Assembly (NCBI GenBank): GCA_028875175.1
Contig: JAPPFO010000090.1
Span: forward strand, 876-40,125
DNA from: Chloroflexota bacterium
GTDB lineage: Bacteria; Chloroflexota; UBA11872
DNA: 39,250 nucleotides
Reading direction: 5' to 3'
This document shows positions 10,920 through 39,028 of this stretch, piece after piece (position 1 is the stretch's first letter; the number at the start of each line of letters is the position of its first letter). The notes under the pieces were generated by a model. The model did no database searches, was not told where the DNA came from, and worked only from the letters and a program-made list of their open reading frames with translations. The position numbers and the translations under genes were made by a program.

Positions 10920-12055
10920 AGTTCGCGGTATACCAGTTCGGTTGCCCGGGCCATCGCCTCGGCGTCGTGATAGACCGCCACGGCCGCATGAGCCTCCGTT
11001 GCAAGCGTGCGAGCCTCATCCGAGTGTGTCAACAACCGCAGCGTCGCGGCGGCGGCGGCGGGAATGTCACCTGGTTTGACCAGGAGTCCGGTGCGCTCGT
11101 GCTCGATGAGATCGGTCGTTCCGACGGCGCGGGCGGCAACAATTGGAACTCCGGCGGTCATGACCTCCATGATCGAGTAGGGCACACCCTCCCAGCGGGC
11201 CATGTGCAGGTACACATCCAGCGCCGTGAGCAGCGTGCGGGCGTTGGTCACAAATCCCGGAAGCGACGTTGCCTTGTGGACGTCGAGTTCCCGAAGGCGA
11301 TCCTCCACCTGCGTACGCAGTTCACCGTCGTTGGTCCAGAGAAACCGAGCGTCCGGGCGCCGGCGGTAGATCGCCGCGAATGTCTCCGCAATGTCGAACG
11401 GCGCCTTCTGTTCGGTAAACCGAGCCGTGGTGCCGACAATCGGCGCGTCAGCTGGCAGACCGAGACGTCGGCGGGCCTCCGCGCGCGGCAGAGGCTCGAA
11501 CGGCGCAAACGTGAGAGGGACTTTGCGAACTTTGCGCGGCTGAACGATTTCGCCCGCCACCTGTCGTTCGCCCTCTGAGAGCGCGATGAGCGCTGACGTT
11601 GCACGTCCCAGCATTGCTTCCAGCCAGCGCAAGGGCGCACGTGCGATGGGCGAGGCGAAGTTGAGGAAGTAGAACCCATGCGGCGTATGAACAATCCGGG
11701 CACCCGGCGCGAGCATGGCGGCCACGCGGCCAACGACGCCCGCCTTGGTGCTGTGGGTGTGCACGATGTCGTAGCGACCACGGTGGATCAGCCGCACGAG
11801 CGCCCAGGTCGCGCGCCAATCGTCGATCGGTCGAATGGCGCGAGTCATGGGCACGACGTGCAGCTGCACGTCCAGTGCCGACATGTCGTCGAAAAACGAG
11901 GTGTCGCCGCGAGGCTCGGAGCGAACACGGGGACACGCCACTTCGAAGTGGAAGGACGAGCGATCGGAAGCGGCCGCCAGATCGAGCAGATGGCGCTTGG
12001 TGCCGCCAATCGTGGCCTCCATGACCTGGAGAACTCGAATCGGACGGCGAGCCAT
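10904..12055 (-). CDS. GT4-family glycosyltransferase
   Basis: ORF track 10904..12055. IRVLQVMEATIGGTKRH N-terminus and C-terminal E-x7-E region RWEGVPYSIMEVMTAGVPIVA...GLLV. Confidence 0.85.
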   Translation of the reverse strand: MARRPIRVLQVMEATIGGTKRHLLDLAAASDRSSFHFEVACPRVRSEPRGDTSFFDDMSALDVQLHVVPMTRAIRPIDDWRATWALVRLIHRGRYDIVHTHSTKAGVVGRVAAMLAPGARIVHTPHGFYFLNFASPIARAPLRWLEAMLGRATSALIALSEGERQVAGEIVQPRKVRKVPLTFAPFEPLPRAEARRRLGLPADAPIVGTTARFTEQKAPFDIAETFAAIYRRRPDARFLWTNDGELRTQVEDRLRELDVHKATSLPGFVTNARTLLTALDVYLHMARWEGVPYSIMEVMTAGVPIVAARAVGTTDLIEHERTGLLVKPGDIPAAAAATLRLLTHSDEARTLATEAHAAVAVYHDAEAMARATELVYRELVRER

Positions 12056-19904: not shown

Positions 19905-21031
19905 GCCCGAGCGTCCAGGCGCCCGCCCAGGCTCTCGGCATACACGTCCAGGAGTTGCTGTGCCGATCGGCGCCAGGTCATCGCATCCGCCCGGCGGCGC
20001 CCTCCATCAGCCAACGCCTGCCAGCGGCTTCCATCGGTCAGGACGCCGCGAAGCGCGTCAGTCAGCGCCGGCACGTCATTCGGTGGAACCAGCAAGCCGT
20101 TGTGGTCATGGATGACTGGCTCCTCGGCCCCGGAATCGCGGGCACTGACCACGGGAGTCCCGCAGGCGTTGGCTTCCAGCAGCACGAGGCCGAAGCCGTC
20201 GAAATCGGAGCCAGCCAACCGGTAGGGCATCGTCACCACGCGCGCGCGGTGGTACCAGTCCACGAGTTCGTTCTCGCTGACAATGCCGGTCAGGGTGACG
20301 AATCTGTCGAGCTCAAGCTCGCGGATCCGGGTGCGCAGCTGATTGACGAAGGGTGACGACGAATCGGAGGGGCCGACGACCACGTATCGGTGGGCGACGC
20401 CCTCGGACTTCAGGCGTGCGAAGGCCTCCAGCGCCAGGTCGAATCCCTTGCGAGGCTTGCTCTCGCCGACCGACACGATCAATCCAGGTTCCCGAGGCGG
20501 CGGTTCCGCGCGCTGAAAGTCCTCCGCCCGCACAGCCAGCGGCACCACGCTTGTCTGCCGCACATTGGCATCGGCTTCGACTCGCCGGCGCGTGTAGTCG
20601 CTGATGGCGGGTAGGCCACGCGCCCGCCGTAACGCCCAGCGCAGCAGCCAGCGCTCAATCCAAGGCCGGCCTGACGGAATGGAATAGGTGCCAACGAGCG
20701 ACACAAGGTAGGGCCGTCGACCGGCCGCCAGGGCAACTCCCGGGGCGTAGGGCTCGACCATGCAATGGATGACGTCGGCTCCGCGCAGAGCCCGAAGCAA
20801 TGGTGGCAGCGTGCGCTGGAACATACGCAACGGATGGCGCCGCCCATGCTGAAACGAGGGAATCTCCGCGTGGTCGGGGTAGTCGCGCAAGTCGGCCATC
20901 GTCGCCAGACGGCGAGGGCTGACGAGGCGCAGGTCAACCCCTGCGGCAATTAACTCCCGGGCCAGCTCGCCCGCGTAGCGTCCCCAGCCGTTGGTCGGAT
21001 CGAGCGCGTCGCTGACCAGCGCCAGCTTCAC
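19901..21031 (-). CDS. GT4-family glycosyltransferase
   Basis: ORF track 19901..21031. MKLALVSDALDPTNGWGRY, DGFGLVLLEANACGTPVVSARDSGAEEPV. GTGA overlap with the upstream gene. Confidence 0.85.
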   Translation of the reverse strand: MKLALVSDALDPTNGWGRYAGELARELIAAGVDLRLVSPRRLATMADLRDYPDHAEIPSFQHGRRHPLRMFQRTLPPLLRALRGADVIHCMVEPYAPGVALAAGRRPYLVSLVGTYSIPSGRPWIERWLLRWALRRARGLPAISDYTRRRVEADANVRQTSVVPLAVRAEDFQRAEPPPREPGLIVSVGESKPRKGFDLALEAFARLKSEGVAHRYVVVGPSDSSSPFVNQLRTRIRELELDRFVTLTGIVSENELVDWYHRARVVTMPYRLAGSDFDGFGLVLLEANACGTPVVSARDSGAEEPVIHDHNGLLVPPNDVPALTDALRGVLTDGSRWQALADGGRRRADAMTWRRSAQQLLDVYAESLGGRLDARA

Positions 21032-23655
21032 CGGCGGTCGGTCCAGAGGCCTGCGGCGGCCAGCACGACGAGTGCGCCCAGCGCCACCAATGAAACGACG
21101 AGCCCGGCAGCAAAGCCCGGTGGCTCATACGTCATCGCCACCGTGTGCGGACCGGCGCTGGCAACCGGAACCCCGCGCATCAGCGAGTTCACGGTGACCA
21201 TCTCCGTCGGGCGCCCGTCCACGCTCGCCTTCCAGCCCGGAAACTGCGCCTCGTTGAACACCAGCAGTCCCGGCTCGCTCAGTTCCACTCGCACAGTTAC
21301 GGCGCCCGCGCTCCGTTCGGGAGGATGCACCACGTCGATGCTCTCGGCGCTCGATGTCCGAATCCCGGGATCACGATCGACAATCGGCGGGCCGGGGCGA
21401 CCGGCGAGAGCGTCCAACGTGGAAGACGTTGAGGCGCCCGGCTCGATGATCTGCCAGTCACGCGCGATCCACGCGCGGGGAGCCCAGTCCGCCACTTCAT
21501 ACACGTACAGACTCTGGTTGACCGACGCCCACCGCGGCAGGGCAAGGTCTTCGACCTGGACCTCGCGCAAGGTCGGAACATCAAGCGGCACGCCGGAGGT
21601 AACGAAGCGCACGTTGGCAGCCGCCAGGGCAGGTACCCGGCGTCGCAGCATCTCGGTTCGTCCCTCGGCGTCCAGGGCCGCGTCAGACGCGAACCCGGCA
21701 ACCGTGGAGCGTTCGCTTCCGACGAAGGCCAGGTAATCCGCCGTGGTCTGCGGCATCAGGTTCTCGTAGCCGTCGATCGAGGCGCGCCCGCCGGTCATGG
21801 GCAGGTTGGGGGCCAGCGTTTCATTGAGAAAGACGTATTCCAGCAGGTCCCGACGCGTTCGATCCAGTTCCGTTCCCGCGGCGGTGGATAGCTCGAATTT
21901 CTGTGCCTGGCTGCGATAGGAGAACACTCGCCAGTCGCCCCCGGAGTTGGGTGGCACTACGCCGGCGGCCTGCGGATCCCGGGCATACCAGTCGCTGGGT
22001 ACTGTTGGAATCCCATGAAAGGGCGCCAGCAGGACGTCGAGTACCAATACGCCAACGAGGGCCGCTTGCGCGCTCGCTGGCGAGACGCGATGGCGCAGAA
22101 ACCGCCAGAAGATCAAGGCCGTCAGCAAGGCCGCCAGCAGCGACCAGCGCGGCGCCCAGTACTCGAGACTAAAGGCCGCCGTCATGCGTTCGTACAGCTG
22201 ATCGAATGTGCGGTAGTAGCGTTCGGCGGTTAAGAATCGGCCTTCCGATCCGACGATTACCCGATCGATGTAGTCGTAGCCGTAGGGAACGATCAGGAAG
22301 GCAAAGCCGGAGAGCACGACTGTGGCCGCCACCGCGCCGGCGCCGATGAGCCCGGCCAACCAGACCCAGGCGCGGCCGATCCAGCGCACCAGCACGCTGG
22401 ATCGCAGATCGTCAACGCTCAACCGCTCGATTCCCATTGCCGTCAGGAATGCCACTCCGAACGACGCCGCGATTCCGAATCGCGCTGGCTGTCGGAAGAA
22501 TTCGAAGAGCGGAAGCTTGTGCAACAGGGGAAAGCCGAGGCTGAAGGAGCCCATCGAGAGAAGCCAGGTCAGCAGGACGAGCCCGCCCAGGAACCAGGTA
22601 AGGCGTTGGCGCCAGCCGATCACGATGGCAATCAACGCCAGGGCCGGCGCGGCAAGTCCGAGATAGAGCAGTTCTTCGGCGTTGAGGGTTTCATTCAGCA
22701 CTCGTGGAATCTCGAATGACGGATAGACGTACCCCAACACGAGGCTCCACGGAGGAATGGACCCCTGCGAAGCCGTGGCAAAGTCAAGCCCGCCGGCGCG
22801 GGCGGAGAGCTCCGTCGTGGTAATGGTCGGCAAGAGTCGGACGGCGCCCACGGCCAGTCCCACGACGGCGGCGGCGGCCACCCATCCCGCGTTCCTGGCT
22901 GCGTGGACAAATCCCACGTCGCCCCAGTTCCACCAGAAGCGCGTGGCGGCGAAGAGAAGCCAGACGAATCCCCACAACAACGCAATTTGGGGATGACCGG
23001 CCAGCACGGTGACCGCTGCGCTGATCGCCAGCAGCGCACTGTAGCGGCGCTGTCCGCGCGTGATCAGCTCGATGGCCCCGACTCCGGCCGGGAGGGCAAA
23101 GAAGATGTCGGCGTAGTTCAGGAAGCGCGACGTTGCGAAGACGAAGCCGCCATAGGTGAACAGAAAGGCGGCCACATAGGCGCCCAGCCGGGTGAGCCCC
23201 CAGACCCGGCCCAGCCAATAGGCGGCCGCGGCCGCGAGGGCAAGACCAAGCGCCAGTTCGATGAAATAAGCGCGCAGCGGTTCAAATATCACGAGCAGTA
23301 GCCAGGTCAGCGGATAGAACCAGCCGAATTCGGAGAACGCAACGGGAAAGCCCGCCAACATGCCGTCCGCCCAGAGAGGGATTCGGCCTTCACGAACGCC
23401 TTCGGCCAACAGCGCATACCGCGGCTGGTAGCTCAGCAGGAGGTCGAGGTCCAGCCAGGGCGCGCCGGCAAAGAGCAGGTCGCGATAGAGCACCAAGAGC
23501 GGCGTCAGCAGCCCGACCGCTACCAGCGCGCGGCGCTGGGCGATCGAGGCATGCTCAATACAGCCGAGCGCACCGACCCAGGCCTGGCTCAGCCTGGTCA
23601 AGACGCCGGCGTAGATTCCAGGAACTCGCGGATAGCCGCGGCGCGCTGCGTCCAT
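21028..23655 (-). CDS. Large polytopic membrane protein, YfhO-like (GT-C-type extracytoplasmic glycosyltransferase candidate)
   Basis: ORF track 21028..23655. About 14 N-terminal TM helices, a ~300-aa soluble domain, then FPGWKASVDGRPTEMVTVNSLMRGVPVASAGPHTVAMTYEP followed by one terminal TM helix, as in the YfhO architecture. ATG 23655 overlaps the upstream GT4 gene by 58 nt. In-frame TTG 23601 would give a TTGA overlap instead. Confidence 0.65.
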   Translation of the reverse strand: MDAARRGYPRVPGIYAGVLTRLSQAWVGALGCIEHASIAQRRALVAVGLLTPLLVLYRDLLFAGAPWLDLDLLLSYQPRYALLAEGVREGRIPLWADGMLAGFPVAFSEFGWFYPLTWLLLVIFEPLRAYFIELALGLALAAAAAYWLGRVWGLTRLGAYVAAFLFTYGGFVFATSRFLNYADIFFALPAGVGAIELITRGQRRYSALLAISAAVTVLAGHPQIALLWGFVWLLFAATRFWWNWGDVGFVHAARNAGWVAAAAVVGLAVGAVRLLPTITTTELSARAGGLDFATASQGSIPPWSLVLGYVYPSFEIPRVLNETLNAEELLYLGLAAPALALIAIVIGWRQRLTWFLGGLVLLTWLLSMGSFSLGFPLLHKLPLFEFFRQPARFGIAASFGVAFLTAMGIERLSVDDLRSSVLVRWIGRAWVWLAGLIGAGAVAATVVLSGFAFLIVPYGYDYIDRVIVGSEGRFLTAERYYRTFDQLYERMTAAFSLEYWAPRWSLLAALLTALIFWRFLRHRVSPASAQAALVGVLVLDVLLAPFHGIPTVPSDWYARDPQAAGVVPPNSGGDWRVFSYRSQAQKFELSTAAGTELDRTRRDLLEYVFLNETLAPNLPMTGGRASIDGYENLMPQTTADYLAFVGSERSTVAGFASDAALDAEGRTEMLRRRVPALAAANVRFVTSGVPLDVPTLREVQVEDLALPRWASVNQSLYVYEVADWAPRAWIARDWQIIEPGASTSSTLDALAGRPGPPIVDRDPGIRTSSAESIDVVHPPERSAGAVTVRVELSEPGLLVFNEAQFPGWKASVDGRPTEMVTVNSLMRGVPVASAGPHTVAMTYEPPGFAAGLVVSLVALGALVVLAAAGLWTDRR

Positions 23656-24808: not shown

Positions 24809-26617
24809 TTAGATCCGATATCTGACGCACACCGTGGCGCCGGCCTCTTGCGCGCCAAACTCGATGACGTTCCCCGTCCGTCGCCACGGAGCATCCGCCT
24901 CAACCTGAGGTTCCCGCCCCGCGGCCGGGACCCAGTAGCGTAGGTCGGGTACGAGCACGGAGGTCTCGAGTTGGTCGGTGACGGCAATTTCGCCCGCGGC
25001 AAGGTTGTACGTTCGCCTGGTGCGCACGCCGGCGAGCGCGCGGCCGTCCGCACGCGCCACGCCGGACGCCACCGTCAGTGCGTCGTCTGTGGCCTCGGTC
25101 CGGCCCTCAAGCGCGTGGCTGGACAGCCAGCGGCGGCTTGCCCGCCAGGACGGCGGGCCAAAGTGCCGCCAGAGCAAACCGAACGCGTAGCGAGAGCGGC
25201 CAGCGCGCAGGTGGGTCCGCGCAATGTGCAGCAGGAAGCGCGACTCTCGAGGAGCCAGCAGCCGACGCACGTCCGGCAGCGGCCTGCGCCTGGACTCCGG
25301 TGCGACCTCCCAGGCGCCCTCGGGAACGGCCGGCTCCGAGCGATAGCGCAGCCGATTGCGCCATCCATCGCGGGCGTTGCCGACGTAGATCAAACCGCCG
25401 CCGCCAACGCGTCCACCGACCAGCCGGTCGGACGGGCGCTTCCTGGTTCGTACCAGCGCGCAGACTCGTGGCGCTTCCAGCCTGGCCACCCCGGCGTCCT
25501 CCGCCACTGACGGATCGGAGCGTCCGGCCGCCGGCGGGTTGCTCGGCAGGTCGTCCAGTTCGGCCGCGGCGTGGGCCCGCGCCAGCCAGGCGAGATCGGC
25601 GGTGTGCATGACCCGGCAGACGAAGGCCGGCGCGCCTTGCGTCGCGTCGATCAGCCCTCCCTCGCCGAGCGCCGCCGCGCTCTGGGCTGCGACGCGACCA
25701 GCGAGAGGCAGCAGCGCTTCGCGTCCGTCCGAAGCAAGCACGTACGCGCCATACGGAGCGGAACCAACCTCCGCATCCGCGTCCCAGAACCAGCGCTTGC
25801 CTTCCAATCCAAGCGGCATCACACCGTCGGGACGGAGTACGAATGCCAGGAAATCGGCGCCGTCGCGCAGGCGGTCCTCAAAGGACGCTTCCGCGTCAAT
25901 GTGCCGCAGAGCATAGCGAGCGAAGGCCACGCAGCGGCTGTGGTAGTAAACCGTCAGATCGGCAATCCCCTCGCCTTCGCCAAGCAGAGCCGCATCGCGG
26001 ACATAGGCAAACGAGCCATCCGACCGCATCTCGGCGAGCGAGCGCGCCATCGAGTCCTGCACGGCGCGGGCCCATGCCGGCTCGTCTAACGCTGCAGAGG
26101 CGGCTGCCAGACCCATCGCGCCCCAGAGCCGCTGGTTGACCACGGGCTTATCGATGACGTTCGTGAGCAGATAGGTGTCGCAGCACAGCCGGAGCGCCTG
26201 TTCGATGGCGTCGCGATCCGTCGCCGAGAGCTCGTCTCCCGCGTGCAGCAGCAGCGTCGCCAGCGCGTCGACGCACTCCCCAGCGTCGATGATGTTCGTC
26301 GAGTTATTGCGATGATCGTGAAGGCCCGGGAAGAACACCCAGGCTCCGCCGGCGCCCGAGTCGGGCGCCAGGCGCGCCACGACGCGCCGCGCCGTGGCCA
26401 CGGCCCTGGTGAGGTAACGCTCCTGGTTCGTGTGCGCGTGCAGCGCGCAGTTGATCACGATGCCGCGGGCCGTCTTGCCGGTGTGATCGACCCCATGTTC
26501 CGGACAGCGCGTGTAGTCATGCCGGTCCGTCAGGCGCTCGAAGGCCGTTGAAGCCTCGGCCAGCACCCAGGCGGCGCGCGGGGTCAGGACGGACGATCGA
26601 ACGGCTTCAACCGTCAT
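24809..26617 (-). CDS. Hypothetical protein: alpha-toroid-like N-terminal half and beta-rich C-terminal half (heparinase II/III-like architecture at best)
   Basis: ORF track 24809..26659. ATG 26617 (MTVEAVRSS) lies 4 nt after the upstream stop. Helical repeats with DG-aromatic turns (MRSDGSFAYV, LRPDGVMPLG, GGAWVFFPG). No signal peptide or TM helix seen. Function not recognisable. Confidence 0.6.
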   Translation of the reverse strand: MTVEAVRSSVLTPRAAWVLAEASTAFERLTDRHDYTRCPEHGVDHTGKTARGIVINCALHAHTNQERYLTRAVATARRVVARLAPDSGAGGAWVFFPGLHDHRNNSTNIIDAGECVDALATLLLHAGDELSATDRDAIEQALRLCCDTYLLTNVIDKPVVNQRLWGAMGLAAASAALDEPAWARAVQDSMARSLAEMRSDGSFAYVRDAALLGEGEGIADLTVYYHSRCVAFARYALRHIDAEASFEDRLRDGADFLAFVLRPDGVMPLGLEGKRWFWDADAEVGSAPYGAYVLASDGREALLPLAGRVAAQSAAALGEGGLIDATQGAPAFVCRVMHTADLAWLARAHAAAELDDLPSNPPAAGRSDPSVAEDAGVARLEAPRVCALVRTRKRPSDRLVGGRVGGGGLIYVGNARDGWRNRLRYRSEPAVPEGAWEVAPESRRRPLPDVRRLLAPRESRFLLHIARTHLRAGRSRYAFGLLWRHFGPPSWRASRRWLSSHALEGRTEATDDALTVASGVARADGRALAGVRTRRTYNLAAGEIAVTDQLETSVLVPDLRYWVPAAGREPQVEADAPWRRTGNVIEFGAQEAGATVCVRYRI

Positions 26618-26621
26618 GGCC

Positions 26622-27227
26622 CTACGTTCGCTCGCGGATGACGCGGGCGGGCATTCCACCCACGATCGCGTACGGCGGCACGTCGTCGGACACCACTGCG
26701 CGTACGGCCACGACCGCCCCGTCGCCGATCGTCACGCCGGGCAGCACCACAACGTCGCTGTAGAGCATGACGTCGTTGCCGATCGTTACCGGCGCGGTTT
26801 CAATTGGCGCGTCCAGGGCTGGCGTGTCGCGCTTATCGAGCAGGTGCCGATGGGTGTAGATGCTTGAGCGCCGACCAATATGCGACCGCTGGCCCACCCG
26901 GATCCCGCCCGTGCAGTCGAGGCGCGTTTCTGAGAGGACTTCCGTTCCCGCGCCGATCGTCAGTGCCGCATCCGGCGCGCGTCCGGGCTCCCAGCCGGCC
27001 CGCACGTCACGCTTGATGCGGACGCCGTCGCCCACGGTCAGCCGCAGGCCCGGCGGGTAATAGAAGCGTCCGTCCACCCGAACCCCTGGTCCGCAGGTCA
27101 CGCCCGTCGCACGCCGCAGCAGGGCCGCTCGGATCCGCCAGAGCAGCTGCTGGTATGACGGCAGCACGTGCAGGTCCGGCAGTTGACCGACGAGACGGGC
27201 GAGCTGACGGGACGGATCCAGGTTCAT
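26622..27227 (-). CDS. Hexapeptide-repeat (left-handed beta-helix) acetyltransferase
   Basis: ORF track 26622..27293. ATG 27227 overlaps the upstream stop (ATGA). IGNDVMLYSDVVVLPGVTIGDGAVVAVRAVVSDDVPPYAIVGGMPARVI. Confidence 0.85.
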   Translation of the reverse strand: MNLDPSRQLARLVGQLPDLHVLPSYQQLLWRIRAALLRRATGVTCGPGVRVDGRFYYPPGLRLTVGDGVRIKRDVRAGWEPGRAPDAALTIGAGTEVLSETRLDCTGGIRVGQRSHIGRRSSIYTHRHLLDKRDTPALDAPIETAPVTIGNDVMLYSDVVVLPGVTIGDGAVVAVRAVVSDDVPPYAIVGGMPARVIRERT

Positions 27228-30737: not shown

Positions 30738-31859
30738 TCAGTTGCCTGGCGACTCGGTCCCGTTGGTTATGTGCGAACCGTTGGTCCCGACCTGAAGGAC
30801 GGGCAGCGCATCCCCGGTCACCACGCCGCGAGCGCCGGCAAAGAGGTTCCAGGACGAACCGTCCTCCTGCCAGATGGCGTCGCATCCACGGCACAGCTTG
30901 TAGTCATCCAGCTTGCCGCGCACGTGCGCCTCGCGAATCGCGCGATACGCCGGGTTGTTCCAGATGTCCAGCAGCGACTCGTTGGCAAGGTCTCCCATGA
31001 TCTGGTCTTCGCCGAAGTCCGCGCAGCAGGAGGGGACCTTGCCGTCCCAGTAGATCGCCATGGACTTCCAGAGCCAGTTGCAGGGGTAGTAATTCGGGCC
31101 ATGCGGACGCGCGGTGTAGAAGTCGGACGAGTCCATCTGCCCGGCCCAGCCGTGCGCCCAGAACGTGTCCCACTCGTCCACGGGCAATCCGTCAAAGCGC
31201 TGCCGGAAGTGCTCCGGAATCACCGGTGCGGCGCCCTTGGGATAGCTCGAGTCCCAGAGCTGAATCACCTGCATCACGAAGTACGGTTTCGGGCCGGAAC
31301 GCTGCTTTCGCGATTCAAGGAGTCGAAGCACGCGCTCAAGCGTGCGGTCGAACTGCGCGCCCTTGCGCATGACTTCGTAGTGTTCGGGTTCGCCCGAGTC
31401 AAAGCTGATCGTCAGCTTGCTCGGCGCCGCGTCCAGCAACTGCTCAATCTTCTCGTCGCGCAGCAGGGTGGCGTTCGTGTTGATGTGGGCGGCAATCCCG
31501 GCCCGCTCGCAGACCTCGATCATCTCGTAGATGTCCTTGTGCATCAGCGACTCGCCGCGGAAGAACAGGTTGGCCTCCCGCACGAACGGCTTTGCCTCGT
31601 CGATGATCTTGCGGAACAGGCCCATGTCCATGAACGGCTTCTGCTTTTTGAGTTCGTCGGCGAGCACACTCTGCGGACACATGGGACAGCGCAGGTTGCA
31701 GGCGCTGGTCGGCTCGATGTGCAGCTTGAGCGGCCCATAGGGCAACTCGGTCGTGCCGCGCATCCAGTGGTAGGCAAAGCGACTGAGCGACGGCCGGAGG
31801 ATCGCGCGGTGCCGCCGGTACTTAACCAGCAGGTCTTTCGCCTGGCTGATCGAATTCAC
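30738..31859 (-). CDS. Radical SAM enzyme with C-terminal SPASM/twitch-like Cys-rich domain
   Basis: ORF track 30738..31859. CNLRCPMC (CX3CX2C, nt 31677-31700), FFRGESLMH, INTNATLL. C-terminal C-x12-G-x4-C (PCNWLWKSMAIYWDGKVPSCC) and CRGC. GTG start overlaps the stop of the Trm112-like gene (GTGA). Confidence 0.85.
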   Translation of the reverse strand: MNSISQAKDLLVKYRRHRAILRPSLSRFAYHWMRGTTELPYGPLKLHIEPTSACNLRCPMCPQSVLADELKKQKPFMDMGLFRKIIDEAKPFVREANLFFRGESLMHKDIYEMIEVCERAGIAAHINTNATLLRDEKIEQLLDAAPSKLTISFDSGEPEHYEVMRKGAQFDRTLERVLRLLESRKQRSGPKPYFVMQVIQLWDSSYPKGAAPVIPEHFRQRFDGLPVDEWDTFWAHGWAGQMDSSDFYTARPHGPNYYPCNWLWKSMAIYWDGKVPSCCADFGEDQIMGDLANESLLDIWNNPAYRAIREAHVRGKLDDYKLCRGCDAIWQEDGSSWNLFAGARGVVTGDALPVLQVGTNGSHITNGTESPGN

Positions 31860-32086
31860 GAGCTAACGGCTTCCTCGTGCCTCGGGGGAATCGCGTCTTC
31901 CCACAGCATGTTGGGAATCCCGTCCTCGACCCTGTATCGATAGCCGCAAACTGTACAGACGAGAAAGTCGCCCTTGATGCGCAGTACGCCGTCATCGCGC
32001 GGATGATCGTCGTTCACGCAGCGCAGGATCGCCAGGAAGTCGTCTGGAATGAGCGGCGGCGCGGACGTCGCGTCCGAATCAGCCAT
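31856..32086 (-). CDS. Trm112/YcaR-like (UPF0434) mini-protein, 76 aa
   Basis: ORF track 31856..32086. FLAILRCV...LVCTVCGYRYRVEDGIPNMLWEDA matches the Trm112-type zinc-ribbon-like pattern, with the first CxxC knuckle degenerate. AAGGGAG about 13 nt upstream of the ATG. Confidence 0.7.
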   Translation of the reverse strand: MADSDATSAPPLIPDDFLAILRCVNDDHPRDDGVLRIKGDFLVCTVCGYRYRVEDGIPNMLWEDAIPPRHEEAVSS

Positions 32087-32115: not shown

Positions 32116-34374
32116 CTAGAGCATGAAATGTAGCGTGTCAAAGCTAATCAACAGCGCGGCAAACGCGCCAATCGCAGCAACGCGCACTGACCGCACACGG
32201 CGCCCAGATGGCCAGATGCGGCCGGTCAGACCAACCCAAGCCCCGAGCACGGCGAATTGAAGTACCAATAGCAGTCCGCCCACCCAAATAATAAGCATCG
32301 GGTAGGCAAGGAAACCCTCGACGAGGCTCAAGGACCAAAAGTCCAGTCCAAGCCCGTTTTCAGGATGCGACGGAACGGCCTCAATACCGAATCGTGACCA
32401 GGGCGTTCGGCTCAGGGCGTCGGCCAGCCAGTCAGTGCGGTCCGGTGCAAGGAGGTTCATGGCGTCCGCGCGCAGCAGCCAGGCGTGCGCCAGCAAGGGC
32501 GAAAACTGGTAGGCATAAAGGACTGCCGCGTAATCGCCTTCGGGCTGAATCGACGACCACGGCTGGTAGTCAGCACCGCCGTAGATTGCGCCCTTGAGCG
32601 TTACGGAGCCGGCGACTTGTTGCTGGAAGAGGTCCAGGTAGCCCGCGAAGTCCTTGGACACGCCCATGAACTGCACGCCGGCGCTAATCAGCACCGCACC
32701 GGCCAGGGCCGCGCCAGGCAGCCAGGTTCGCGCCCGCTCGACTACCCGTTCGAAAAGCGGCGCACCTACGATCACCAGCAGCGGCAACGCTGGCACCAGG
32801 TAGCGCGGTCCCCAGGCGTTACCGCCGTACCAGACCTGTTTGCGGCTGTAGAGCAACGCATACGCAACCGGAATCGCCAGGAATACGAGCGAACGCCAGC
32901 CATGGCGGCGCACAAACCAGGGCAGTGCGGGCAGCGAGACGAGAAGGATGGGGTTGTACCAGAGCACACCCTTGCCCCAGCTTGTGATCAGTCCGCCAAG
33001 CCCCAGGCCAAACGGCAGCTCCAGCCAGCCGCGCTGCAGGCCGCCGATAAGTTCGTGCACGTACAGGAAGCGGAAATCGAATAGCGTGGCCGCGGCCACC
33101 AGTGCCGGAACCAGCACGACCAGAAACGGGGCCAGGAACAGGAAGACCGGCCGCACCGATTGCCTCAGCGTTGTGCGCCAGGAACCGCCCGAATGTTCGC
33201 CCACGACCAGTCCCGCCACGAGAATGGGCACGGTTATGACGCTGACGTACTTGGTCAGCACCGCCGCGAACGCCGCCAGGCCGGCCAGGGCCACGAAGCG
33301 CAGCCGCCGGGTTGAGCCGTAGACGAGGGAAAGCCACACCGCCGCCAGAAGAAACGTCGTCACCAGCGGTTCGGAGAAGTCGAACTTCGCGTAGGGCCAG
33401 GCCATCGTGCCGACGGCGTAGATCAGCGCGCTGACGACGGCCACCCGCTCGCCGTATTGCAGCCGTCGCAGGATTCGAAAGACCAGCACCACACCAACGG
33501 CCGTAGCCAGCGCGTTGGCCGCCGCCACCCAGATGCGGCGGAAGAACTCGCGATTCTGGCGCTCCGACCAAACTCGTCCGACCCCCGGCCCATCAAGCCA
33601 CGTCCCATCGGGCGTACGCAGCGCCAGACCGTCCACGTAAAAGTTCCCGGTGGGCTGCAGGTAGCTGACTCGCGCCGATGCGAGTTCGCGCGGCGGATCG
33701 AATCGCCACGTCGATCCGTAGTAGTACGCGCGTGCATTGCCGATCTGGCGAGCCACCGGTGGCGGTTGCTCATGCTGAATCCGTGCGCGCACGTCGCCCC
33801 GGTCGTAGGCCCATTCGGCGGTCTCAATGCCGACGCGGATCGGGTGTTCAGTCGTGGTTCCGGCGGCATCGGTGAGATGAAGCCGCGCGATCTCCGTCCC
33901 CTGGGAGAACCCGGCGCTAAGTCCGCTGTGCGACAACAGGACCAGTCTGTCGTAGCTGCCGGGTTCGATTCCAAGCTCGATTTCGTCGGTCACCTCGGGC
34001 CCCCGCGATCCGCCCAGCGGGGGAAAGTTCACCAGCAACACGTCGTGCTCGCCCAACGGAATCCGGTCTCGCTGCGGAGCCGCCTCGGCTAAGGGCTCCG
34101 CGAATGCAACGAATGGCATGAACGCCGTGGGCAAGCCCACGCCCCAGCGGGTGAAATTTCGGTTTTGGTCGCGCAGATAGGCGTGGCCATGATCGACGAT
34201 GACGCTCTTCGCCATCTCGAACGCAAAGGTGCCGTCGGCGCTGTAGCCGCCGCCATTCCGTGCCGCTCCCATGCTCAGCGCGTACAGCGTGAAGGCAAAT
34301 GCAAACAGCAGAAAGGCGGGACGCGCCTGCGCCCAGCGCATCAGGCGCCGCGTGCGCGTCACGCGACGGCCCAC
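32116..34374 (-). CDS. Large polytopic GT-C-like (ArnT/PMT-type) membrane glycosyltransferase candidate with ~180-aa soluble insert
   Basis: ORF track 32116..34374. Basic N-terminus, TM1, loop YSADGTFAFEMAKS, TM2, soluble insert (nt ~33541-34089), then at least 10 TM helices to the C-terminus. Start GTG 34374 or ATG 34341. Confidence 0.6.
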   Translation of the reverse strand: MGRRVTRTRRLMRWAQARPAFLLFAFAFTLYALSMGAARNGGGYSADGTFAFEMAKSVIVDHGHAYLRDQNRNFTRWGVGLPTAFMPFVAFAEPLAEAAPQRDRIPLGEHDVLLVNFPPLGGSRGPEVTDEIELGIEPGSYDRLVLLSHSGLSAGFSQGTEIARLHLTDAAGTTTEHPIRVGIETAEWAYDRGDVRARIQHEQPPPVARQIGNARAYYYGSTWRFDPPRELASARVSYLQPTGNFYVDGLALRTPDGTWLDGPGVGRVWSERQNREFFRRIWVAAANALATAVGVVLVFRILRRLQYGERVAVVSALIYAVGTMAWPYAKFDFSEPLVTTFLLAAVWLSLVYGSTRRLRFVALAGLAAFAAVLTKYVSVITVPILVAGLVVGEHSGGSWRTTLRQSVRPVFLFLAPFLVVLVPALVAAATLFDFRFLYVHELIGGLQRGWLELPFGLGLGGLITSWGKGVLWYNPILLVSLPALPWFVRRHGWRSLVFLAIPVAYALLYSRKQVWYGGNAWGPRYLVPALPLLVIVGAPLFERVVERARTWLPGAALAGAVLISAGVQFMGVSKDFAGYLDLFQQQVAGSVTLKGAIYGGADYQPWSSIQPEGDYAAVLYAYQFSPLLAHAWLLRADAMNLLAPDRTDWLADALSRTPWSRFGIEAVPSHPENGLGLDFWSLSLVEGFLAYPMLIIWVGGLLLVLQFAVLGAWVGLTGRIWPSGRRVRSVRVAAIGAFAALLISFDTLHFML

Positions 34375-34380: not shown

Positions 34381-35967
34381 CTACGGCGCGTCATCGACGA
34401 GCTCGCTCACGAGCGCGTTGAGCCGCTCGCGGAAGGCCGGCGTATTGAATCGCTCGCTCGACTCGCGGGCGCGTCTCGCCATCCCCGCCCGCATATCGAG
34501 GTCTTGCACCAGACGCCACGTCCGCTCGCGCAGTTCATCGGTCGAGGACCAGAGAAAGCCGTCCTCGCCGTCGCGCACCAGTTCCGGCGGCCCACCTTGA
34601 TTCAGCACCACCGGCACAGCTTGATTGGCCATGGCTTCCACCACGGAGATTCCGAAGTGCTCAAACTTGACCGGATTGCGTGCTACACGCTCGCCGTATC
34701 CGGCCGCGTGCCAATAGACCTGGGCTTCAGCGTAAAGGCGCTGCAAGTCCGCGAATGGCGCATCGATGGCGAATTCAATCGGGTGGCCGGCCGCACGCCG
34801 CCGCAACTCGTCCGTATAAGCAAGGTCAATGTCTCGCCGGCTCTGATGGCCCGCCAAACGCAGCGTCCAGCCCTGCAGGCCATCGCGGCACATGCGGATG
34901 AACTGGTCGATCATCACCCCGTGCTTCTTCTCATGCGTGCCTCGAAAAAAGCGGCCCACGCTCAGGATCGTTCGTGTCTTGGCCCGCGCCATGGCCCAGC
35001 TCGTGTCAACCGGAGGGTAGAGCAGCGGCCCGCTGCGCCCCCAGTACACCTCCATCCACGCGCGGCTGTACTCCGAGATCGGACAGATCATGTCGTAGGT
35101 ATCCAGGTGGGCCAGGGAATAGAACGCCGGCAGCCCTTCCAGCCGCAGCCCCAGCTCACGAAACATCCGGCGGAAAAGCAGTTCGTAGAGGAAGTGGCGT
35201 GGGTGACGAACGCGCACGTCCGTGACGGCAAGCCCGACTTCACGGTTGTCGGCCTCGGCAATCCTGTCGGTGGGGTTGAACGTTGGCGACTCCAGCATCA
35301 AGTCAACAAGACCGTCCCGCACAAACTGCCGGTCTACGTCGATCCTCCACGCCTCGAAGGCTCCCGGGCGCGGTGCAAACGAGCGTTTGGCGATCACCGT
35401 ACCGCCCGCCAGACAGCGCACTGGCAGGTCGGCGCCTGGCTGAAAATTCCCGCCCACGATTTCGATCGGGACGGGCTTCCGGCCGCCCGGCACCCGCATC
35501 TTGATACACGCCCGGTCGGTCGCGTACCGAAACCAGCCGCGACCAAGTTCTTGCACGTCGTAGAAGCCGTCGCTCCACTCCGGCAGCAAGAGCTCCCGCG
35601 TCAGGAAGCGCCCGATGGCCTGTCGCATTCGCGCCGGCCAGCTGCGATCGATCGGGGATGGAAAAAGCACCAGCATCAGGCTGTGCCGCGCTGCCGACGG
35701 CTGATTCGTCATGAACGAGGCATTAACGAACAGGTCGTACTCACGCGTGACTTCGGCAAACCTGTTCGGGGGCAAGGCCGGAATCACGCGGATGCCGATC
35801 CCGTCGAGGTCAATGTGGAGCGCCTCGGCCAGCTCGTCGCGCCCAATCGGGCGGTGGGTAATGAGTTCGGTATCGAACCGCTCGGCCAGCACACGGGCGG
35901 CCATTACCGCGTGCCGCTCGCCGCCGCCTTTCTGATGCAGCCAGCGGTTGTAAACCCCCGCTCTCAC
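34381..35967 (-). CDS. GT4-family glycosyltransferase carrying an internal ~120-aa beta-rich insert
   Basis: ORF track 34381..35967. C-terminal FEHFGISVVEAMANQAVPVVLNQGGPPELV...GFLW. Insert at aa ~132-254. GTGA overlap with the upstream GT2 gene. Confidence 0.8.
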   Translation of the reverse strand: MRAGVYNRWLHQKGGGERHAVMAARVLAERFDTELITHRPIGRDELAEALHIDLDGIGIRVIPALPPNRFAEVTREYDLFVNASFMTNQPSAARHSLMLVLFPSPIDRSWPARMRQAIGRFLTRELLLPEWSDGFYDVQELGRGWFRYATDRACIKMRVPGGRKPVPIEIVGGNFQPGADLPVRCLAGGTVIAKRSFAPRPGAFEAWRIDVDRQFVRDGLVDLMLESPTFNPTDRIAEADNREVGLAVTDVRVRHPRHFLYELLFRRMFRELGLRLEGLPAFYSLAHLDTYDMICPISEYSRAWMEVYWGRSGPLLYPPVDTSWAMARAKTRTILSVGRFFRGTHEKKHGVMIDQFIRMCRDGLQGWTLRLAGHQSRRDIDLAYTDELRRRAAGHPIEFAIDAPFADLQRLYAEAQVYWHAAGYGERVARNPVKFEHFGISVVEAMANQAVPVVLNQGGPPELVRDGEDGFLWSSTDELRERTWRLVQDLDMRAGMARRARESSERFNTPAFRERLNALVSELVDDAP

Positions 35968-37325
35968 AACATCTCAATGAACGGATGCAGCTCACGCCCG
36001 TCCAGCGGAGCCAGGCGAGCCTCACGACGCCGACACTGCCACGTGCGCGACCCCACAGTTGCGGCGCTCGTTAGCGCCAACAAGCGCGCAAAGGCCAAAC
36101 GTGCCGCCTCCGCGTTACGCATACCGAGCCCGCGGCGGGCGTCGCCTGCCCCGAATTTCACGGCGGCGGCCGCGTGTTGGGCCACCCACGCCCACGGTGC
36201 GTTCTTGCCCAGCATTCGGAGCTTGCCGAACTCCACATTGCGCACGAACCCTGGGGACCACTCGCGGCTAAGAGCGGCATGTTCATGGCGCACAACCGAG
36301 CTGGGCTCGTACCAAAAGCGCCAGCCACGGCGACGGGCGCGCCAGGCGAGATCGGCATCCTCGTAGTACATGAAGATACCGTCGTCCAGATAGTCCAGCG
36401 CATCCAGCATTGACCGACGGTAGAGAACCGCTGCCCCTTTGGGCGCAAAGATCTCACGAGCCTGGCTGAAGCCCGGCGAGTCCCAGGCCGACCAGGGCAC
36501 GCCTGCCAGCAATTGCGTCCCCCGGTCGCGCATTGAGCCGTCGTCGAGCGGCGCGATGCCCGCACACTCGATAGCCGGCCGCGCCAGGCCAGCCACCAAT
36601 TCGGCCTTGAAATCAAGCTGAACCGTCGTGCGATCACTTCCAATCGGCACCTCGCCCAGCAGATGGTCACCCGCGTGTACGGTGATGGGCACTTTCGCCC
36701 GTCCGTCGCCTGCCGCCACGTCGAGGCGTAGCCACGTCGACGCCCGATCGACGGGTACCGCAAGGGCTGTGCAGCCATCGGTCCAGCGAAACGCCTGGCC
36801 AGACACGTTCAGTTCTACACCATGAGCGCCGCCGGTCACCTCCGCCAACCCGGCCGTCGTCTCCGCGCCAAAGAGTTGGACACCCAGCCGTCGCCGGTCA
36901 GGCGGGGGCGGTTCAAATGTGGCAGTGGTCAGCCTGACGGGAATCCGATCGTGCTGATGCAGCAGCTTGGCCCCTACGCCGCCGGCGATCGGGTCGCCAT
37001 TGAGGCGTGTGACCAGGGGCTCCAGCCAGCCCGGCTCGACCTCCGTGTCTGGATTGAGAAGTCCCACGTAGGGCTCGTCCGCCTCGCGCAATGCCCGATT
37101 GTTGCCGCGCGAGAATCCCAGATTTGCTCCGTTTTCGATCAGCTCTACTTCTGGATACGACTGCTCGATTCGCGCCGGCGATCCATCGCTTGACGCGTTG
37201 TCGACCACCGTTACTCGTAGATCCGAGTAGCGGGTGGCCAGCAATCGCTCAATACATCGCTCGATCCGCCCGGCGCCGTTGTAGTTCAGCACAACGACGC
37301 GGACGGGCGGATAGTCGCTGGTCAT
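35964..37325 (-). CDS. GT2-family glycosyltransferase (WbbL/rhamnosyltransferase-like core) with internal ~125-aa insert
   Basis: ORF track 35964..37325. VRVVVLNYNGAGRIERCIERL, VTVVDNASSDGS, NLGFSRGNN, LLNPDTEV, AAVLYRRSML, FMYYEDADLAWRARRRGW. Insert at aa ~126-250. ATGA overlap with the upstream ABC gene. Confidence 0.85.
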   Translation of the reverse strand: MTSDYPPVRVVVLNYNGAGRIERCIERLLATRYSDLRVTVVDNASSDGSPARIEQSYPEVELIENGANLGFSRGNNRALREADEPYVGLLNPDTEVEPGWLEPLVTRLNGDPIAGGVGAKLLHQHDRIPVRLTTATFEPPPPDRRRLGVQLFGAETTAGLAEVTGGAHGVELNVSGQAFRWTDGCTALAVPVDRASTWLRLDVAAGDGRAKVPITVHAGDHLLGEVPIGSDRTTVQLDFKAELVAGLARPAIECAGIAPLDDGSMRDRGTQLLAGVPWSAWDSPGFSQAREIFAPKGAAVLYRRSMLDALDYLDDGIFMYYEDADLAWRARRRGWRFWYEPSSVVRHEHAALSREWSPGFVRNVEFGKLRMLGKNAPWAWVAQHAAAAVKFGAGDARRGLGMRNAEAARLAFARLLALTSAATVGSRTWQCRRREARLAPLDGRELHPFIEML

Positions 37326-39028
37326 TCCACCCGGATAGAGCGCACGGCAATGCCCAGCGGGCGGGTGTCCGAATCCAGCCCCACTTCGGCCGGCACCAGC
37401 GCGTCGTCAACCTCGATCACCAACTCGTGAGTCTTCGGCGCCGTCACCGGATCCAGCGGAATCACGATGTCCTCGAAGTCCATGCCGTGCAGCCTGAAGG
37501 TGGCGATGTGCCGCCCATCCACGCTGACTCGGCCCTGGGCTTGGGCGCGCCCATGCAGTGGACGACAGGCCGACAGAATCAAGGCGCCCTGGCCAACGTC
37601 CTGACGGAGGTAGGCCACGGAGCGCTCGCTGGTCCAGCGCACTCGAGGCGGCCAGTTTTCCGCCGGGAACCAGCCTTCGCCCAGCCATTCAGCGTCAGGC
37701 GCGCCCATCGCCAGCTTCCCGGGCGGCGGCGTCCAGAACGGACCGGCAGGTTCCGAAAGCATGTCCGGCTGAGCGATCGGCGCCGACGAGGAGCGAAGCT
37801 CATCCGTGGACGGTGCAACGGCTATTCGCCACTGCGACGGCACCACGGCCACGCCGCGCTGGGTGCCCGTCGCCTTCCCCACAAAGAGCGTGATGGCATT
37901 GGGCCACAGGTGGTAGGGATGCAGGCGATCGTCGCCCGGCCACGCGCCCAGCGACAGTTGATAGCTGCCCGGCCCCAGCGGCAGTGGTCCAAGCGAGCAC
38001 TCCACGCGAGTGCGTCCTGGCTGCACGCCGATAGGTCCCCGAGTCGAGGCCGTGGAGGTCTCGTGCATCAGCAAACCGTCGCTGCGACGCACCGCGCAGC
38101 CAACCACCACATCATCGAGATACGCATCTGACTCAAGCTCCATTTGCAGCCGCACAACGCCGCCCGGCAGATAGGCGTAGCTCTCCGTTCCAGTCGCCCC
38201 GTCCGTGGCCACGGCCGCCTGGATGCGAAACGTGTCGCCGCCGAGGTCGGGTGTCGTCTCACTGGGCCCCGTTGGCACCTCCGCTGCTGCGCCCGCCATG
38301 TGCTGTAGGTACTGCTGGATCACGTCGCGCGGGTCCCCCAGAGCGCGGATCTGCCCGCCGTCGATCCAGAGCACCCGGTCGCAGAACCGTCGCACCTGGA
38401 TCGGATCGTGTGACACAAAGACCAACGTGCGCCCACGGGCCTTGATGTCGGCCAGCGCCTCGTAACACTTGGACGTAAAGCGTGCGTCCCCGACCGCCAG
38501 CACTTCGTCGATCAGCAGGATGTCTGGATCAACATTGATGGCGATGGAGAATCCGAGCCGCATAAACATGCCGGACGAGTAGTGGCGAACCGGCGTGTCG
38601 ATAAAGCGTTCCAACTCGGCGAAGGCGACGATGCGGTCGTAGAGCTGCCGCATCTCGTTACGCTCGATACCGAGGAATGAACCGTTCAGGAAAATGTTCT
38701 CGCGACCCGTCAGGTCCGGGTGCATCCCCGCGCCCAGTTCAAGCAGGCCGAAGACCTTGCCGCTCGTCAGGACTTCACCCGCCGTTGCTTCGATCGTGCG
38801 CGCCAACAGCTTCAGAATCGTGGTCTTGCCAGACCCGTTGGGGCCGATGATTCCAAGGGTTTCGCCTTCGGCGACCTGCAGATCAACGCCATCGAGCGCC
38901 CAGAATTCTTCGTGCTCGATCCGTCGTCGGCCAAGCAACGCCAACGCCATGCCCTGCCACGTGCGTGCGGCCTCGTGGCGGATCCTGAAACGCTTGCGGA
39001 TCCCACGAAGTTCAATGGCGGCTGGCAT
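37322..39028 (-). CDS. Wzt/TagH-type polysaccharide-export ABC transporter ATP-binding protein with two-part C-terminal extension
   Basis: ORF track 37322..39028. Walker A GPNGSGKTT, signature YSSGM, Walker B ILLIDEVLAVGD, H-loop FVSHD. These are followed by a Wzt_C-like beta-sandwich (FRIQAAV...GPGSYQLSLGA...ITLFV) and a further ~120-aa module. First gene of the minus-strand array. Confidence 0.85.
   Translation of the reverse strand: MPAAIELRGIRKRFRIRHEAARTWQGMALALLGRRRIEHEEFWALDGVDLQVAEGETLGIIGPNGSGKTTILKLLARTIEATAGEVLTSGKVFGLLELGAGMHPDLTGRENIFLNGSFLGIERNEMRQLYDRIVAFAELERFIDTPVRHYSSGMFMRLGFSIAINVDPDILLIDEVLAVGDARFTSKCYEALADIKARGRTLVFVSHDPIQVRRFCDRVLWIDGGQIRALGDPRDVIQQYLQHMAGAAAEVPTGPSETTPDLGGDTFRIQAAVATDGATGTESYAYLPGGVVRLQMELESDAYLDDVVVGCAVRRSDGLLMHETSTASTRGPIGVQPGRTRVECSLGPLPLGPGSYQLSLGAWPGDDRLHPYHLWPNAITLFVGKATGTQRGVAVVPSQWRIAVAPSTDELRSSSAPIAQPDMLSEPAGPFWTPPPGKLAMGAPDAEWLGEGWFPAENWPPRVRWTSERSVAYLRQDVGQGALILSACRPLHGRAQAQGRVSVDGRHIATFRLHGMDFEDIVIPLDPVTAPKTHELVIEVDDALVPAEVGLDSDTRPLGIAVRSIRVE

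Follow-up and report, generated by a model that had tools for sequence, protein, structure and literature searches.

A predicted beta-jelly-roll module recurs in the exporter ATPase and two glycosyltransferases of a Chloroflexota glycan locus, circularly permuted in one of them

The exporter ATPase of O-antigen-type ABC transporters, Wzt, carries a jelly-roll domain (Wzt_C) C-terminal to its nucleotide-binding domain (NBD), which reads the capped terminus of the polymer; in A. aeolicus, the cap read by Wzt is a methylated sugar (PMC9445017). Accessory domains are also known from polymer-modifying transferases, where the stacked domains at the C-terminus of TarS, which resemble carbohydrate-binding modules (CBMs), and the DUF1975 domains of the GT4 enzymes TarM and GtfA have been connected with oligomer formation, with binding of the polymer and with processivity (PMC5156392). 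The module described here is likewise a non-catalytic, beta-rich unit that GT-A and GT-B transferases carry as a fusion or an insert. Unlike the teichoic acid domains, it is common to transferases and exporter, and it belongs to another domain family: Pfam finds neither DUF1975 nor CBM48 in the window proteins or the excised segments, including the GT4 insert. We know of no permuted versions of the TarS, TarM or GtfA accessory domains, nor of any report of Wzt_C copies in transferases. To our knowledge, how ABC-dependent pathways couple extension, termination and export has been worked out in detail only for a handful of systems from proteobacteria and Aquifex, where Wzt alone has a glycan-reading domain.

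We analysed a 39,250-nucleotide stretch of a contig from an uncultured Chloroflexota bacterium (JAPPFO010000090.1), hereafter the window. Its Wzt-type ATPase gene (37322..39028, minus strand, 568 aa) encodes an ABC_tran domain at aa 45–176 (Pfam, E = 9e-19), with TagH- and Wzt-like matches in NCBIfam, and residues 28–390 of the 404-residue A. aeolicus Wzt (8dku/7k2t) align to aa 35–400 (E = 6e-68). A canonical Wzt_C domain (PF14524, scoring 36.4 bits where the cut-off is 30.4) lies at aa 273–384 (37877..38212, minus strand). Downstream of Wzt are genes for a GT2 (GT-A) glycosyltransferase (35964..37325, minus strand, 453 aa; Glycos_transf_2 at aa 10–134, Pfam), a GT4 (GT-B) glycosyltransferase (34381..35967, minus strand, 528 aa; Glycos_transf_1 at aa 330–502, Pfam) and a PMT_2-like protein. 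Upstream, an ABC2_membrane gene precedes Wzt in orthologous loci L001–L003 and L005; in the window, this position falls beyond the 3′ end. With a Wzt-type NBD and carbohydrate-binding domain (CBD), glycosyltransferases in the operon and, in orthologous loci, a nearby ABC-2 permease, the locus is assigned from its gene content to a Wzm/Wzt ABC-transporter-dependent glycan pathway.

Each of the three proteins contains an additional segment, and the original prediction was that these represent one recurring module. The peptides it quoted translate exactly from their positions, all on the minus strand (37325–37681, ABC aa 450–568; 36576–36950, GT2 aa 126–250; 35206–35574, GT4 aa 132–254), and HMM-derived limits are, on the whole, slightly wider (ABC aa 442–568, GT2 aa 121–243, GT4 aa 126–261). 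Copy 1, identified by HMM and hhalign, is an extra C-terminal domain of the ATPase with canonical strand order (37325..37705, minus strand), separated by a ~60-aa linker from the preceding part of the protein. Copy 3, also in canonical order, lies within the N-terminal Rossmann domain of GT4 (35185..35592, minus strand). In GT2, a tail (aa 124–154; 36864..36956, minus strand), corresponding to family profile positions 92–127, stands N-terminal to a head (aa 161–240; 36606..36845, minus strand) corresponding to positions 5–88. Pfam and alignments to solved structures confirm that plain Wzt, GT2 and GT4 proteins lack these segments. The solved GT2 6p61 aligns to aa 5–109 and 292–332 of the window GT2, leaving ~155 extra residues in between. 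In GT4, the insert region is conserved across 117 full-length relatives (~507–573 aa, among the matches listed and aligned). Both insertion sites adjoin acceptor-binding parts of the enzymes, with the GT2 copy between the donor and acceptor halves and the GT4 copy in the acceptor-side N-terminal domain.

Similarity between the segments is barely visible in pairwise comparison. BLASTP of the full-length ABC and GT4 proteins gave two collinear HSPs with E-values of 0.26 and 0.45, and GT2 gave no HSP with either, as would be expected if the resemblance arose by chance or from the composition of unrelated GC-rich coding sequences. Profiles gave a different result. When the ABC module alone was the query, a word-indexed homologue search yielded just three proteins, and ABC orthologues were therefore collected from neighbouring loci, giving a profile of five orthologues; the GT4-insert profile was built from 102 sequences. 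The ABC module matched the GT4 insert over 110 columns (hhalign Prob 98%, P = 2.6e-13, score 75.9), the GT4 and GT2 inserts matched in head (score 80.1, P = 1.5e-13) and tail (43.5, P = 6e-7) with the order swapped, and the ABC and GT2 modules scored 29.9 and 27.1. For each pair, 60 column-shuffled controls had means of 11–12 (sd 1.7–2.6) and a maximum of 19, placing the module scores 5–25 sd above the null. Among the window's 449 six-frame ORFs, an HMM built from GT4 inserts alone matched ABC aa 452–567 (E = 2.3e-8) and GT2 (E = 2e-5), with the next ORF at E = 0.9. A broader family HMM matched GT4 (2e-28, profile positions 2–137), ABC (8e-26, positions 10–130) and GT2 (7e-14); no other ORF scored better than 0.27. 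Furthermore, 43 Chloroflexota species genomes retain the Wzt-GT2-GT4 triad with the module, its order unchanged, and both predicted structural models are confident (below). We therefore give practically no credence to chance similarity, and consider it almost certain that the three copies are homologous and that the GT2 copy is permuted.

As the HMMs match only the ABC, GT4 and GT2 ORFs, the window contains exactly three copies. The GT4-insert and family HMMs found none in the 752-aa PMT_2-like protein. A candidate fourth copy in the ORF at 10904–12055 (GT2-insert HMM, E = 0.012) was rejected, as it falls inside an ordinary Glycos_transf_1 domain and is not matched by the broader HMM.

The GT2 copy had been described as partial or permuted. 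Permutation was borne out; incompleteness was not. When the sequence is re-ordered, it aligns to the canonical copies in one end-to-end stretch (query 9–121 to target 2–120, E = 5e-9; 217 matches at E ≤ 10), whereas the native order gives a significant alignment for the head alone. As judged from these alignments, the GT2 copy is a complete circular permutant in which the last two strands come first; in the model of this copy, the tail piece contributes strands at residues 9–17 and 32–39. The tail-before-head order was detected in 33 of 43 Chloroflexota GT2 orthologues, with the tail below threshold in the other 10. A parallel is the CBM36–CBM60 pair, in which CBM60 is reportedly a circular permutant of CBM36, as described by Montanier et al. 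in 2010. The natural permutant within the GT2 illustrates cleanly how a domain can be inserted through permutation.

Equating the shared module with the cap-binding domain of Wzt, as the original prediction implied, would make the transferase segments copies of Wzt_C. Both domains are beta-sandwiches C-terminal to the NBD of the exporter. However, the position directly after the NBD is already taken by a separate Wzt_C (aa 273–384), and solved Wzt covers only ABC aa 35–400, so that the module is a second, downstream domain absent from the solved proteins, and is present in transferases besides. None of the three segments has a Pfam Wzt_C match even at E ≤ 10, profiles of the Wzt_C region score 14–17 against those of the module, which is within the shuffled null (hhalign), and no Wzt CBD appears in the best 50 Foldseek matches of the GT4 model. 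Identity with Wzt_C is thus contradicted at the level of sequence, and we consider this explanation very improbable.

The suggestion that the module is a beta-sandwich agrees with AlphaFold models of the GT4 copy (pLDDT 89.6, pTM 0.84, nine strands) and the GT2 copy (pLDDT 92), both of which are all-beta. Foldseek matched the GT4 model to CBM6, CBM35, CBM36, CBM4, CBM29 and CBM61 and to BcsB and GH43 C-terminal domains (E 2e-4 to 1.7e-3), with TM-scores of only 0.41–0.57 and sequence identities of 7–18%; the jelly rolls of CBM6, CBM35, CBM36 and CBM4 are its best structural matches. At E ≤ 1e-3 there were 28 PDB matches (TM 0.38–0.56), including CBM6, CBM36 and CBM4; most of these either bind glycans or are accessory domains found on carbohydrate-active enzymes. 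On these superpositions, the GT4 copy is predicted to have a CBM6/35/36-like beta-jelly-roll fold. The permuted GT2 model had no significant Foldseek match (best E = 0.018), which is not counted against the fold because the aligner depends on sequence order. Profile searches of PDB sequences with two module alignments (A1 and A2) returned no meaningful match and no solved member. The matched CBMs reside on secreted glycoside hydrolases, in contrast to the module, which is found here in cytoplasmic biosynthetic enzymes and an ATPase.

Beyond the window, the family comprises 3001 cluster representatives (50% identity clusters) at E ≤ 1e-3, and the module mostly occurs as 2–5 tandem copies per protein. 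Among the best 150 of the 3001 matches, which were surveyed for architecture, the carriers take part in glycan assembly on either side of the membrane, with Wzy_C in 10/67, GT4 in 6/67 and PMT_2 in 5/67, along with methyltransferases, a sulfatase-like protein and a GT2-GT4 fusion. Ten carrier proteins have source names that are all “hypothetical” or generic. The residues G-[FW]-[YH]..E, RW[TS] and D.R.LG, on the first and last strands, are invariant family-wide; they may simply hold the sandwich together and have no part in a binding site.

Whether the module is a named domain was one of the checks originally proposed. No Pfam family matches the three excised segments at E ≤ 10 (DUF7024 included, gathering cut-off 24.4 bits), NCBIfam has none for the module on the full proteins, and Pfam also fails to match the family consensus and seven of eight sampled copies. 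The eighth, in carrier P0337 (aa 19–147), passes the DUF7024 (PF22895) cut-off with 35.9 bits, its module positions 36–125 aligning to positions 61–144 of the 145-position DUF7024 profile. DUF7024 is matched by 4/67 carriers (best E = 8.9e-8), and a sub-threshold match falls inside a module copy of another (P0252). Since the window segments, the consensus and most sampled copies lack a match, the Pfam model covers only the fringe of the module family; no function is attached to it, and the link is one at superfamily level only. A literature search found no mention of DUF7024, and tblastn of a DUF7024-positive protein against plasmids gave no match. CBM60 is sub-threshold in two of ten carriers scanned individually and matched in two more of the 67 (best E = 8e-20). 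Overall, the module is a nine-strand beta-jelly-roll of old origin and wide distribution, with next to no annotation and distantly related to DUF7024.

Methyltransferases with a C-terminal fourth copy follow GT4 in 10 of the 43 triad genomes, and the Wzt copy is closest to this methyltransferase copy (E = 2e-15). The ABC and GT4 copies rank only 238th of 272 by similarity to each other. The three copies of the window are not each other's nearest relatives, and recent duplication within the operon was rejected on this ground. The idea of one shared module therefore holds in the sense of one homologous domain; the copies themselves are old, divergent paralogues rather than mutual closest relatives, and for that reason the same ligand specificity cannot be assumed. 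In the divergent half, the Wzt copy is conserved like Wzt_C (0.57 versus 0.53 identity), while in GT2 and GT4 the module has diverged more rapidly than the catalytic domains (0.35–0.38 versus 0.48–0.69).

Glycan binding, in the manner of a CBM, is the most likely function, and we rate the chances of the mechanism proposed here as evenly balanced. Each copy would bind the growing lipid-linked polymer, or some feature of it, so that both transferases, the exporter and, in some genomes, the methyltransferase would be kept on the same substrate, aiding processivity and hand-over from synthesis to export. The CBM-like fold of the GT4 copy, the glycan-assembly roles of the carriers, the conservation of the triad and the constraint on the Wzt copy point to this function, as do the insertion sites beside acceptor-binding parts, the closeness of the Wzt copy to that of the methyltransferase and the tandem arrays, which on carbohydrate-active proteins are typical of CBMs. 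Against it stand the moderate fold similarity (TM ~0.5), the non-glycan roles that jelly rolls also have, the position of the invariant residues on the first and last strands, the high divergence of the three copies, the faster evolution of the GT2 and GT4 modules and the lack of a significant Foldseek match for the permuted model.

The main rival is protein–protein assembly, in which the copies bind each other or oligomerise, requiring no direct contact with glycan, and unite GT2, GT4, Wzt and, where present, the methyltransferase in one membrane-associated machine. A copy on every cytosolic component of a conserved operon would suit such a role, and there are precedents: the jelly-roll CBDs of Wzt dimerise by strand exchange (PMC9445017), TarS trimerises via its stacked CBM-like domains, and the DUF1975 beta-sheet insert in the N-terminal part of TarM and GtfA serves trimerisation or partner binding (PMC5156392). 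Most family members, however, are tandem arrays within a single, often predicted extracytoplasmic protein, which fits ligand avidity better, and a GT2-type permuted copy also occurs in locus L004, whose Wzt lacks the module. We regard assembly as rather unlikely. A C2-type-like beta-sandwich anchor, attaching to the bilayer or to the polyprenyl-(pyro)phosphate end of the substrate and recruiting peripheral enzymes to the membrane, seems less likely again. All carriers work on lipid-linked substrates at the membrane, and the invariant Arg residues seen in the alignments (RW, D.R) could bind phosphate, but the long C-terminal arrays on integral membrane proteins need no extra anchor and none of the GT4 model's fold matches at E ≤ 1e-3 is a lipid-binding domain.

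The module may also couple synthesis to export, as originally suggested, and this idea is somewhat strengthened by the methyltransferase with a fourth copy found after GT4 in the ten related genomes. More tentatively, and with some doubt, the module could be a cytoplasmic “address” domain by which every soluble step of the pathway would recognise one and the same polymer on its lipid carrier. These steps would comprise the pair of transferases that build the chain, the methyltransferase that terminates it in genomes that have one, and the exporter ATPase, in which the module would sit beside the cap-reading Wzt_C. This would represent a previously undescribed coordination of polymerisation, termination and export, and the DUF7024-like family would constitute a major unrecognised class of glycan-binding domains in biosynthetic rather than degradative enzymes, on both membrane faces. 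At least 3000 clusters, with carriers spanning Wzy-like, GT-C, GT-A, GT-B and methyltransferase proteins, are barely modelled in databases, and a proper model would improve the annotation of many glycan-assembly genes. The presence of the same accessory domain on the exporter and every cytosolic enzyme of an operon conserved in Chloroflexota, a little-studied phylum, offers a testable handle on how synthesis and export are coupled.

The ABC ATPase (568 aa; 37322-39028), GT2 (453 aa; 35964-37325) and GT4 (528 aa; 34381-35967) genes are consecutive, translationally coupled and all on the minus strand, and together they hold the span 35206-37681, for which the original prediction proposed a shared module of ~120 aa. 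Translation of the predicted ranges gives the quoted peptides exactly. Pfam recognises ABC_tran (aa 45-176) and a canonical Wzt_C domain (aa 273-384) in the ATPase, only Glycos_transf_2 (aa 10-134) in GT2 and only Glycos_transf_1 (aa 330-502) in GT4. Both transferase inserts are true extras: the plain solved GT2 structure 6p61 matches aa 5-109 and 292-332 of GT2, with ~155 residues between, and in GT4 relatives the Glyco_transf_4 N-terminal model restarts directly past the module.

Pairwise BLASTP among the three proteins was weak, with two collinear HSPs between the ABC ATPase and GT4 (E 0.26 and 0.45) and no match for GT2. Profiles were built from relatives of GT4 and GT2, for each of which the best 120 matches were listed, mostly full length (~507-573 aa and ~426-491 aa, respectively, plus a few shorter fragments), and from ABC orthologues drawn from syntenic loci. 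The insert region is conserved in the near-full-length relatives aligned (117 for GT4, 116 for GT2). Using hhalign, the ABC module matched the GT4 insert with a score of 75.9 (P=2.6e-13, Prob 98%, 110 columns). The GT4 and GT2 inserts matched in the N-terminal part, or head (80.1, P=1.5e-13), and, in swapped order, in the C-terminal part, or tail (43.5, P=6e-7), while head and tail of ABC versus GT2 scored 29.9 and 27.1. Since hhalign P-values apply to single comparisons, we relied on 60 column-shuffled controls per pair, which gave a mean of 11-12, a standard deviation of 1.7-2.6 and a maximum of 19. An HMM of GT4 inserts alone, to which neither ABC nor GT2 sequences contributed, was run over all 449 ORFs from six-frame translation of the window and recovered ABC aa 452-567 (E=2.3e-8) and GT2 (E=2e-5), with no further match (next best E=0.9). 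A family HMM of 273 copies from other proteins, whose seed ancestry included the window GT4 and ABC copies but not GT2, gave E values of 2e-28 for GT4, 8e-26 for ABC and 7e-14 for GT2 (next ORF 0.27). Chance similarity is thus excluded: the same module is present in all three proteins as proposed, profile alignment and HMM searches both recover every copy, and the window contains exactly three.

The GT2 copy had been described as partial or permuted. Family profile positions 92-127 map to GT2 aa 124-154 and positions 5-88 to aa 161-240. In native order, significant alignment is confined to the head; re-ordered with head before tail, the copy gives one unbroken alignment (q9-121 to t2-120) with canonical copies of unrelated proteins, and a single-sequence phmmer search yields 217 matches (E=5e-9). 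It is therefore a circular permutant and not a partial copy. AlphaFold models the native GT2 insert confidently (pLDDT 92.5, pTM 0.84), with the two tail strands coming ahead of those of the head, and the tail precedes the head in GT2 of 33/43 Chloroflexota orthologues, the other 10 having a short tail below the reporting threshold. As the canonical GT4 copy and the permuted GT2 copy both sit as insertions within a host domain, the module termini must be close together, as the geometry of a viable permutation would require.

The GT4 insert is modelled as a nine-strand beta-sandwich (pLDDT 89.6, pTM 0.84), in keeping with the predicted fold. Foldseek against the PDB gave 28 matches at E<=1e-3 (TM 0.38-0.56), among which CBM6, CBM36, CBM4 and accessory domains of carbohydrate-active enzymes predominate; CBM35, CBM29 and CBM61 fell just under the cut-off (E 1.1e-3 to 1.7e-3), and other matches included cellulose-synthase BcsB, GH43 C-terminal domains and Cry1 toxin domains. 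The structure comparison thus returned CBM-like folds for the GT4 copy, with no Wzt carbohydrate-binding domain (CBD) among the best 50 matches. The permuted GT2 model had no significant match, which we attribute to the order dependence of the alignment. Profile searches of PDB sequences detected no homologue of the module.

The module had by implication been equated with the Wzt CBD, an equation that does not hold. ATPase aa 35-400 match Aquifex aeolicus Wzt (404 aa) over residues 28-390 (E=6e-68); that protein comprises an ATPase domain and a CBD, whereas the window ATPase carries the module as a further domain (aa 442-568) behind a poorly conserved linker (0.46-0.54 identity). Its own Wzt_C region scored 14-17 against the module profiles, equivalent to the null. 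With a separate Wzt_C at aa 273-384, the sequence evidence contradicts identity with the cap-binding CBD.

Searching the GT4 and ABC copy profile against 1.84 billion cluster representatives identified 3001 proteins at E<=1e-3, of which 324 reach E<=1e-10. Architectures were taken from the best 150 of the 3001 matches; 125 of the best 146 contain 2-5 tandem copies, usually towards the C-terminal end of large proteins. A Pfam scan covering 87 of these found Wzy_C (10/67), GT4 (6) and PMT_2 (5), as well as methyltransferases, radical SAM, GDSL, a sulfatase-like protein and a GT2-GT4 fusion. One family copy passed the DUF7024 cut-off (35.9 bits) and a few proteins had sub-threshold CBM60 or DUF7024 matches, while no Pfam model matched the family consensus, 7 of the 8 copies sampled or any of the three in the window. 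The source names of the carriers checked were "hypothetical" or generic, and a literature search found no paper mentioning DUF7024. Given this sparse coverage, the module represents a superfamily, linked to DUF7024, that is under-modelled. In a Geobacter MAG (L047, 3472-11454, plus strand) an open frame of 2660 aa is similar to GT4 and contains three copies of the module, and P0251 is a GT2-GT4 fusion of 933 aa whose GT4 half has the module as an insert; both show that it travels with transferases outside Chloroflexota too. In some family members, such as P0271, it is joined to SPASM or radical SAM domains.

The three copies are homologous, but a single, recently shared copy is not indicated: the ABC and GT4 copies rank 238 of 272 in similarity, and GT4 and the re-ordered GT2 copy rank 227. 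Not being mutual nearest relatives, they did not arise by recent duplication within the operon; they are old paralogues fused separately. The nearest relative of the Wzt copy is the C-terminal module of methyltransferases, with matches to a gene in the related locus L003 (11031-12263; E=2e-15) and to P0273, a two-copy methyltransferase.

A scan of species-representative genomes found 46 loci, 43 of them from uncultured Chloroflexota MAGs, and all 43 have the order Wzt with module, GT2, GT4 with insert. In 10/43 (L003, L039-L046 and L048) a methyltransferase with a C-terminal module copy directly follows GT4 and could be the chain-terminating capping enzyme; the window has none at this position. 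The wider operon is conserved in L001-L003 and L005: ABC-2 permease, Wzt, GT2, GT4, a PMT_2-like protein (~750 aa), a small protein (~75 aa), radical SAM/SPASM and additional GT4s. The module diverges more quickly among GT2 and GT4 orthologues than their catalytic domains do (0.35-0.38 versus 0.48-0.69 identity), in Wzt orthologues it is as conserved as Wzt_C, and none of the orthologues compared has lost it. The window's PMT_2-like (GT-C-type) membrane protein (752 aa; 32116-34374, minus strand), conserved right after GT4, has no module copy; several PMT_2 proteins elsewhere have 3-5 in tandem. Between it and the radical SAM/SPASM gene (30738-31859, minus strand), which every syntenic locus has within its glycan operon, is a 76-aa ORF (31856-32086, minus strand) with a CxxC zinc-ribbon motif (CTVCGYRYRVEDGIPNML). 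This ORF overlaps the start of the radical SAM/SPASM gene by 4 nt and is present in all syntenic loci, its L003 counterpart being annotated Trm112p-like. L004, a locus of another, rhamnose type (RmlA-D-like genes, DUF2142), encodes a 38% identical GT2 with permuted module beside a 422-aa Wzt without the extra module; the GT2 copy is therefore not strictly dependent on a Wzt module.

Elsewhere in the window, a second glycan-assembly gene set (9487-29562, minus strand) looks like a Wzx-dependent route, with a Bac_transf initiating transferase at 9487-10902, a Polysacc_synt_3 flippase at 18429-19904 and a YfhO-like membrane protein at 21028-23655. This set also encodes a hexapeptide acyltransferase and an epimerase, along with at least nine GT4-type genes, and carries no module copy. 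A 616-aa ORF amid this glycosyltransferase cluster (24809-26659, minus strand) has no Pfam match at E<=1e-4. The LanC-like (lanthionine synthetase C-like) protein (4572-5849, minus strand), adjoining GFO/IDH/MocA oxidoreductases, an aminotransferase and a methyltransferase, appears unrelated to the module.

The CBM-like fold, the tandem-array habit, the exclusive link to glycan-assembly proteins at both membrane faces and insertion points adjoining acceptor-binding regions favour glycan binding as the likeliest role, a reading we hold with moderate confidence. Of the original interpretation, the CBM-like character stands; the Wzt CBM identity and the recently shared copy do not. The main rival, a part in protein-protein assembly, has precedents in the strand-exchanged dimers of Wzt CBDs (PMC9445017), the stacked CBM-like trimerisation domain of TarS and the DUF1975 insert of TarM/GtfA (PMC5156392), but we think it rather unlikely, and a membrane-binding or lipid-carrier-binding role seems improbable. 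In A. aeolicus, Wzt_C has an established cap-reading role, the cap being a methylated sugar (PMC9445017). Under glycan binding, the module would let every cytosolic enzyme, and the exporter, hold the lipid-linked polymer, a grip that would complement cap reading by Wzt_C.
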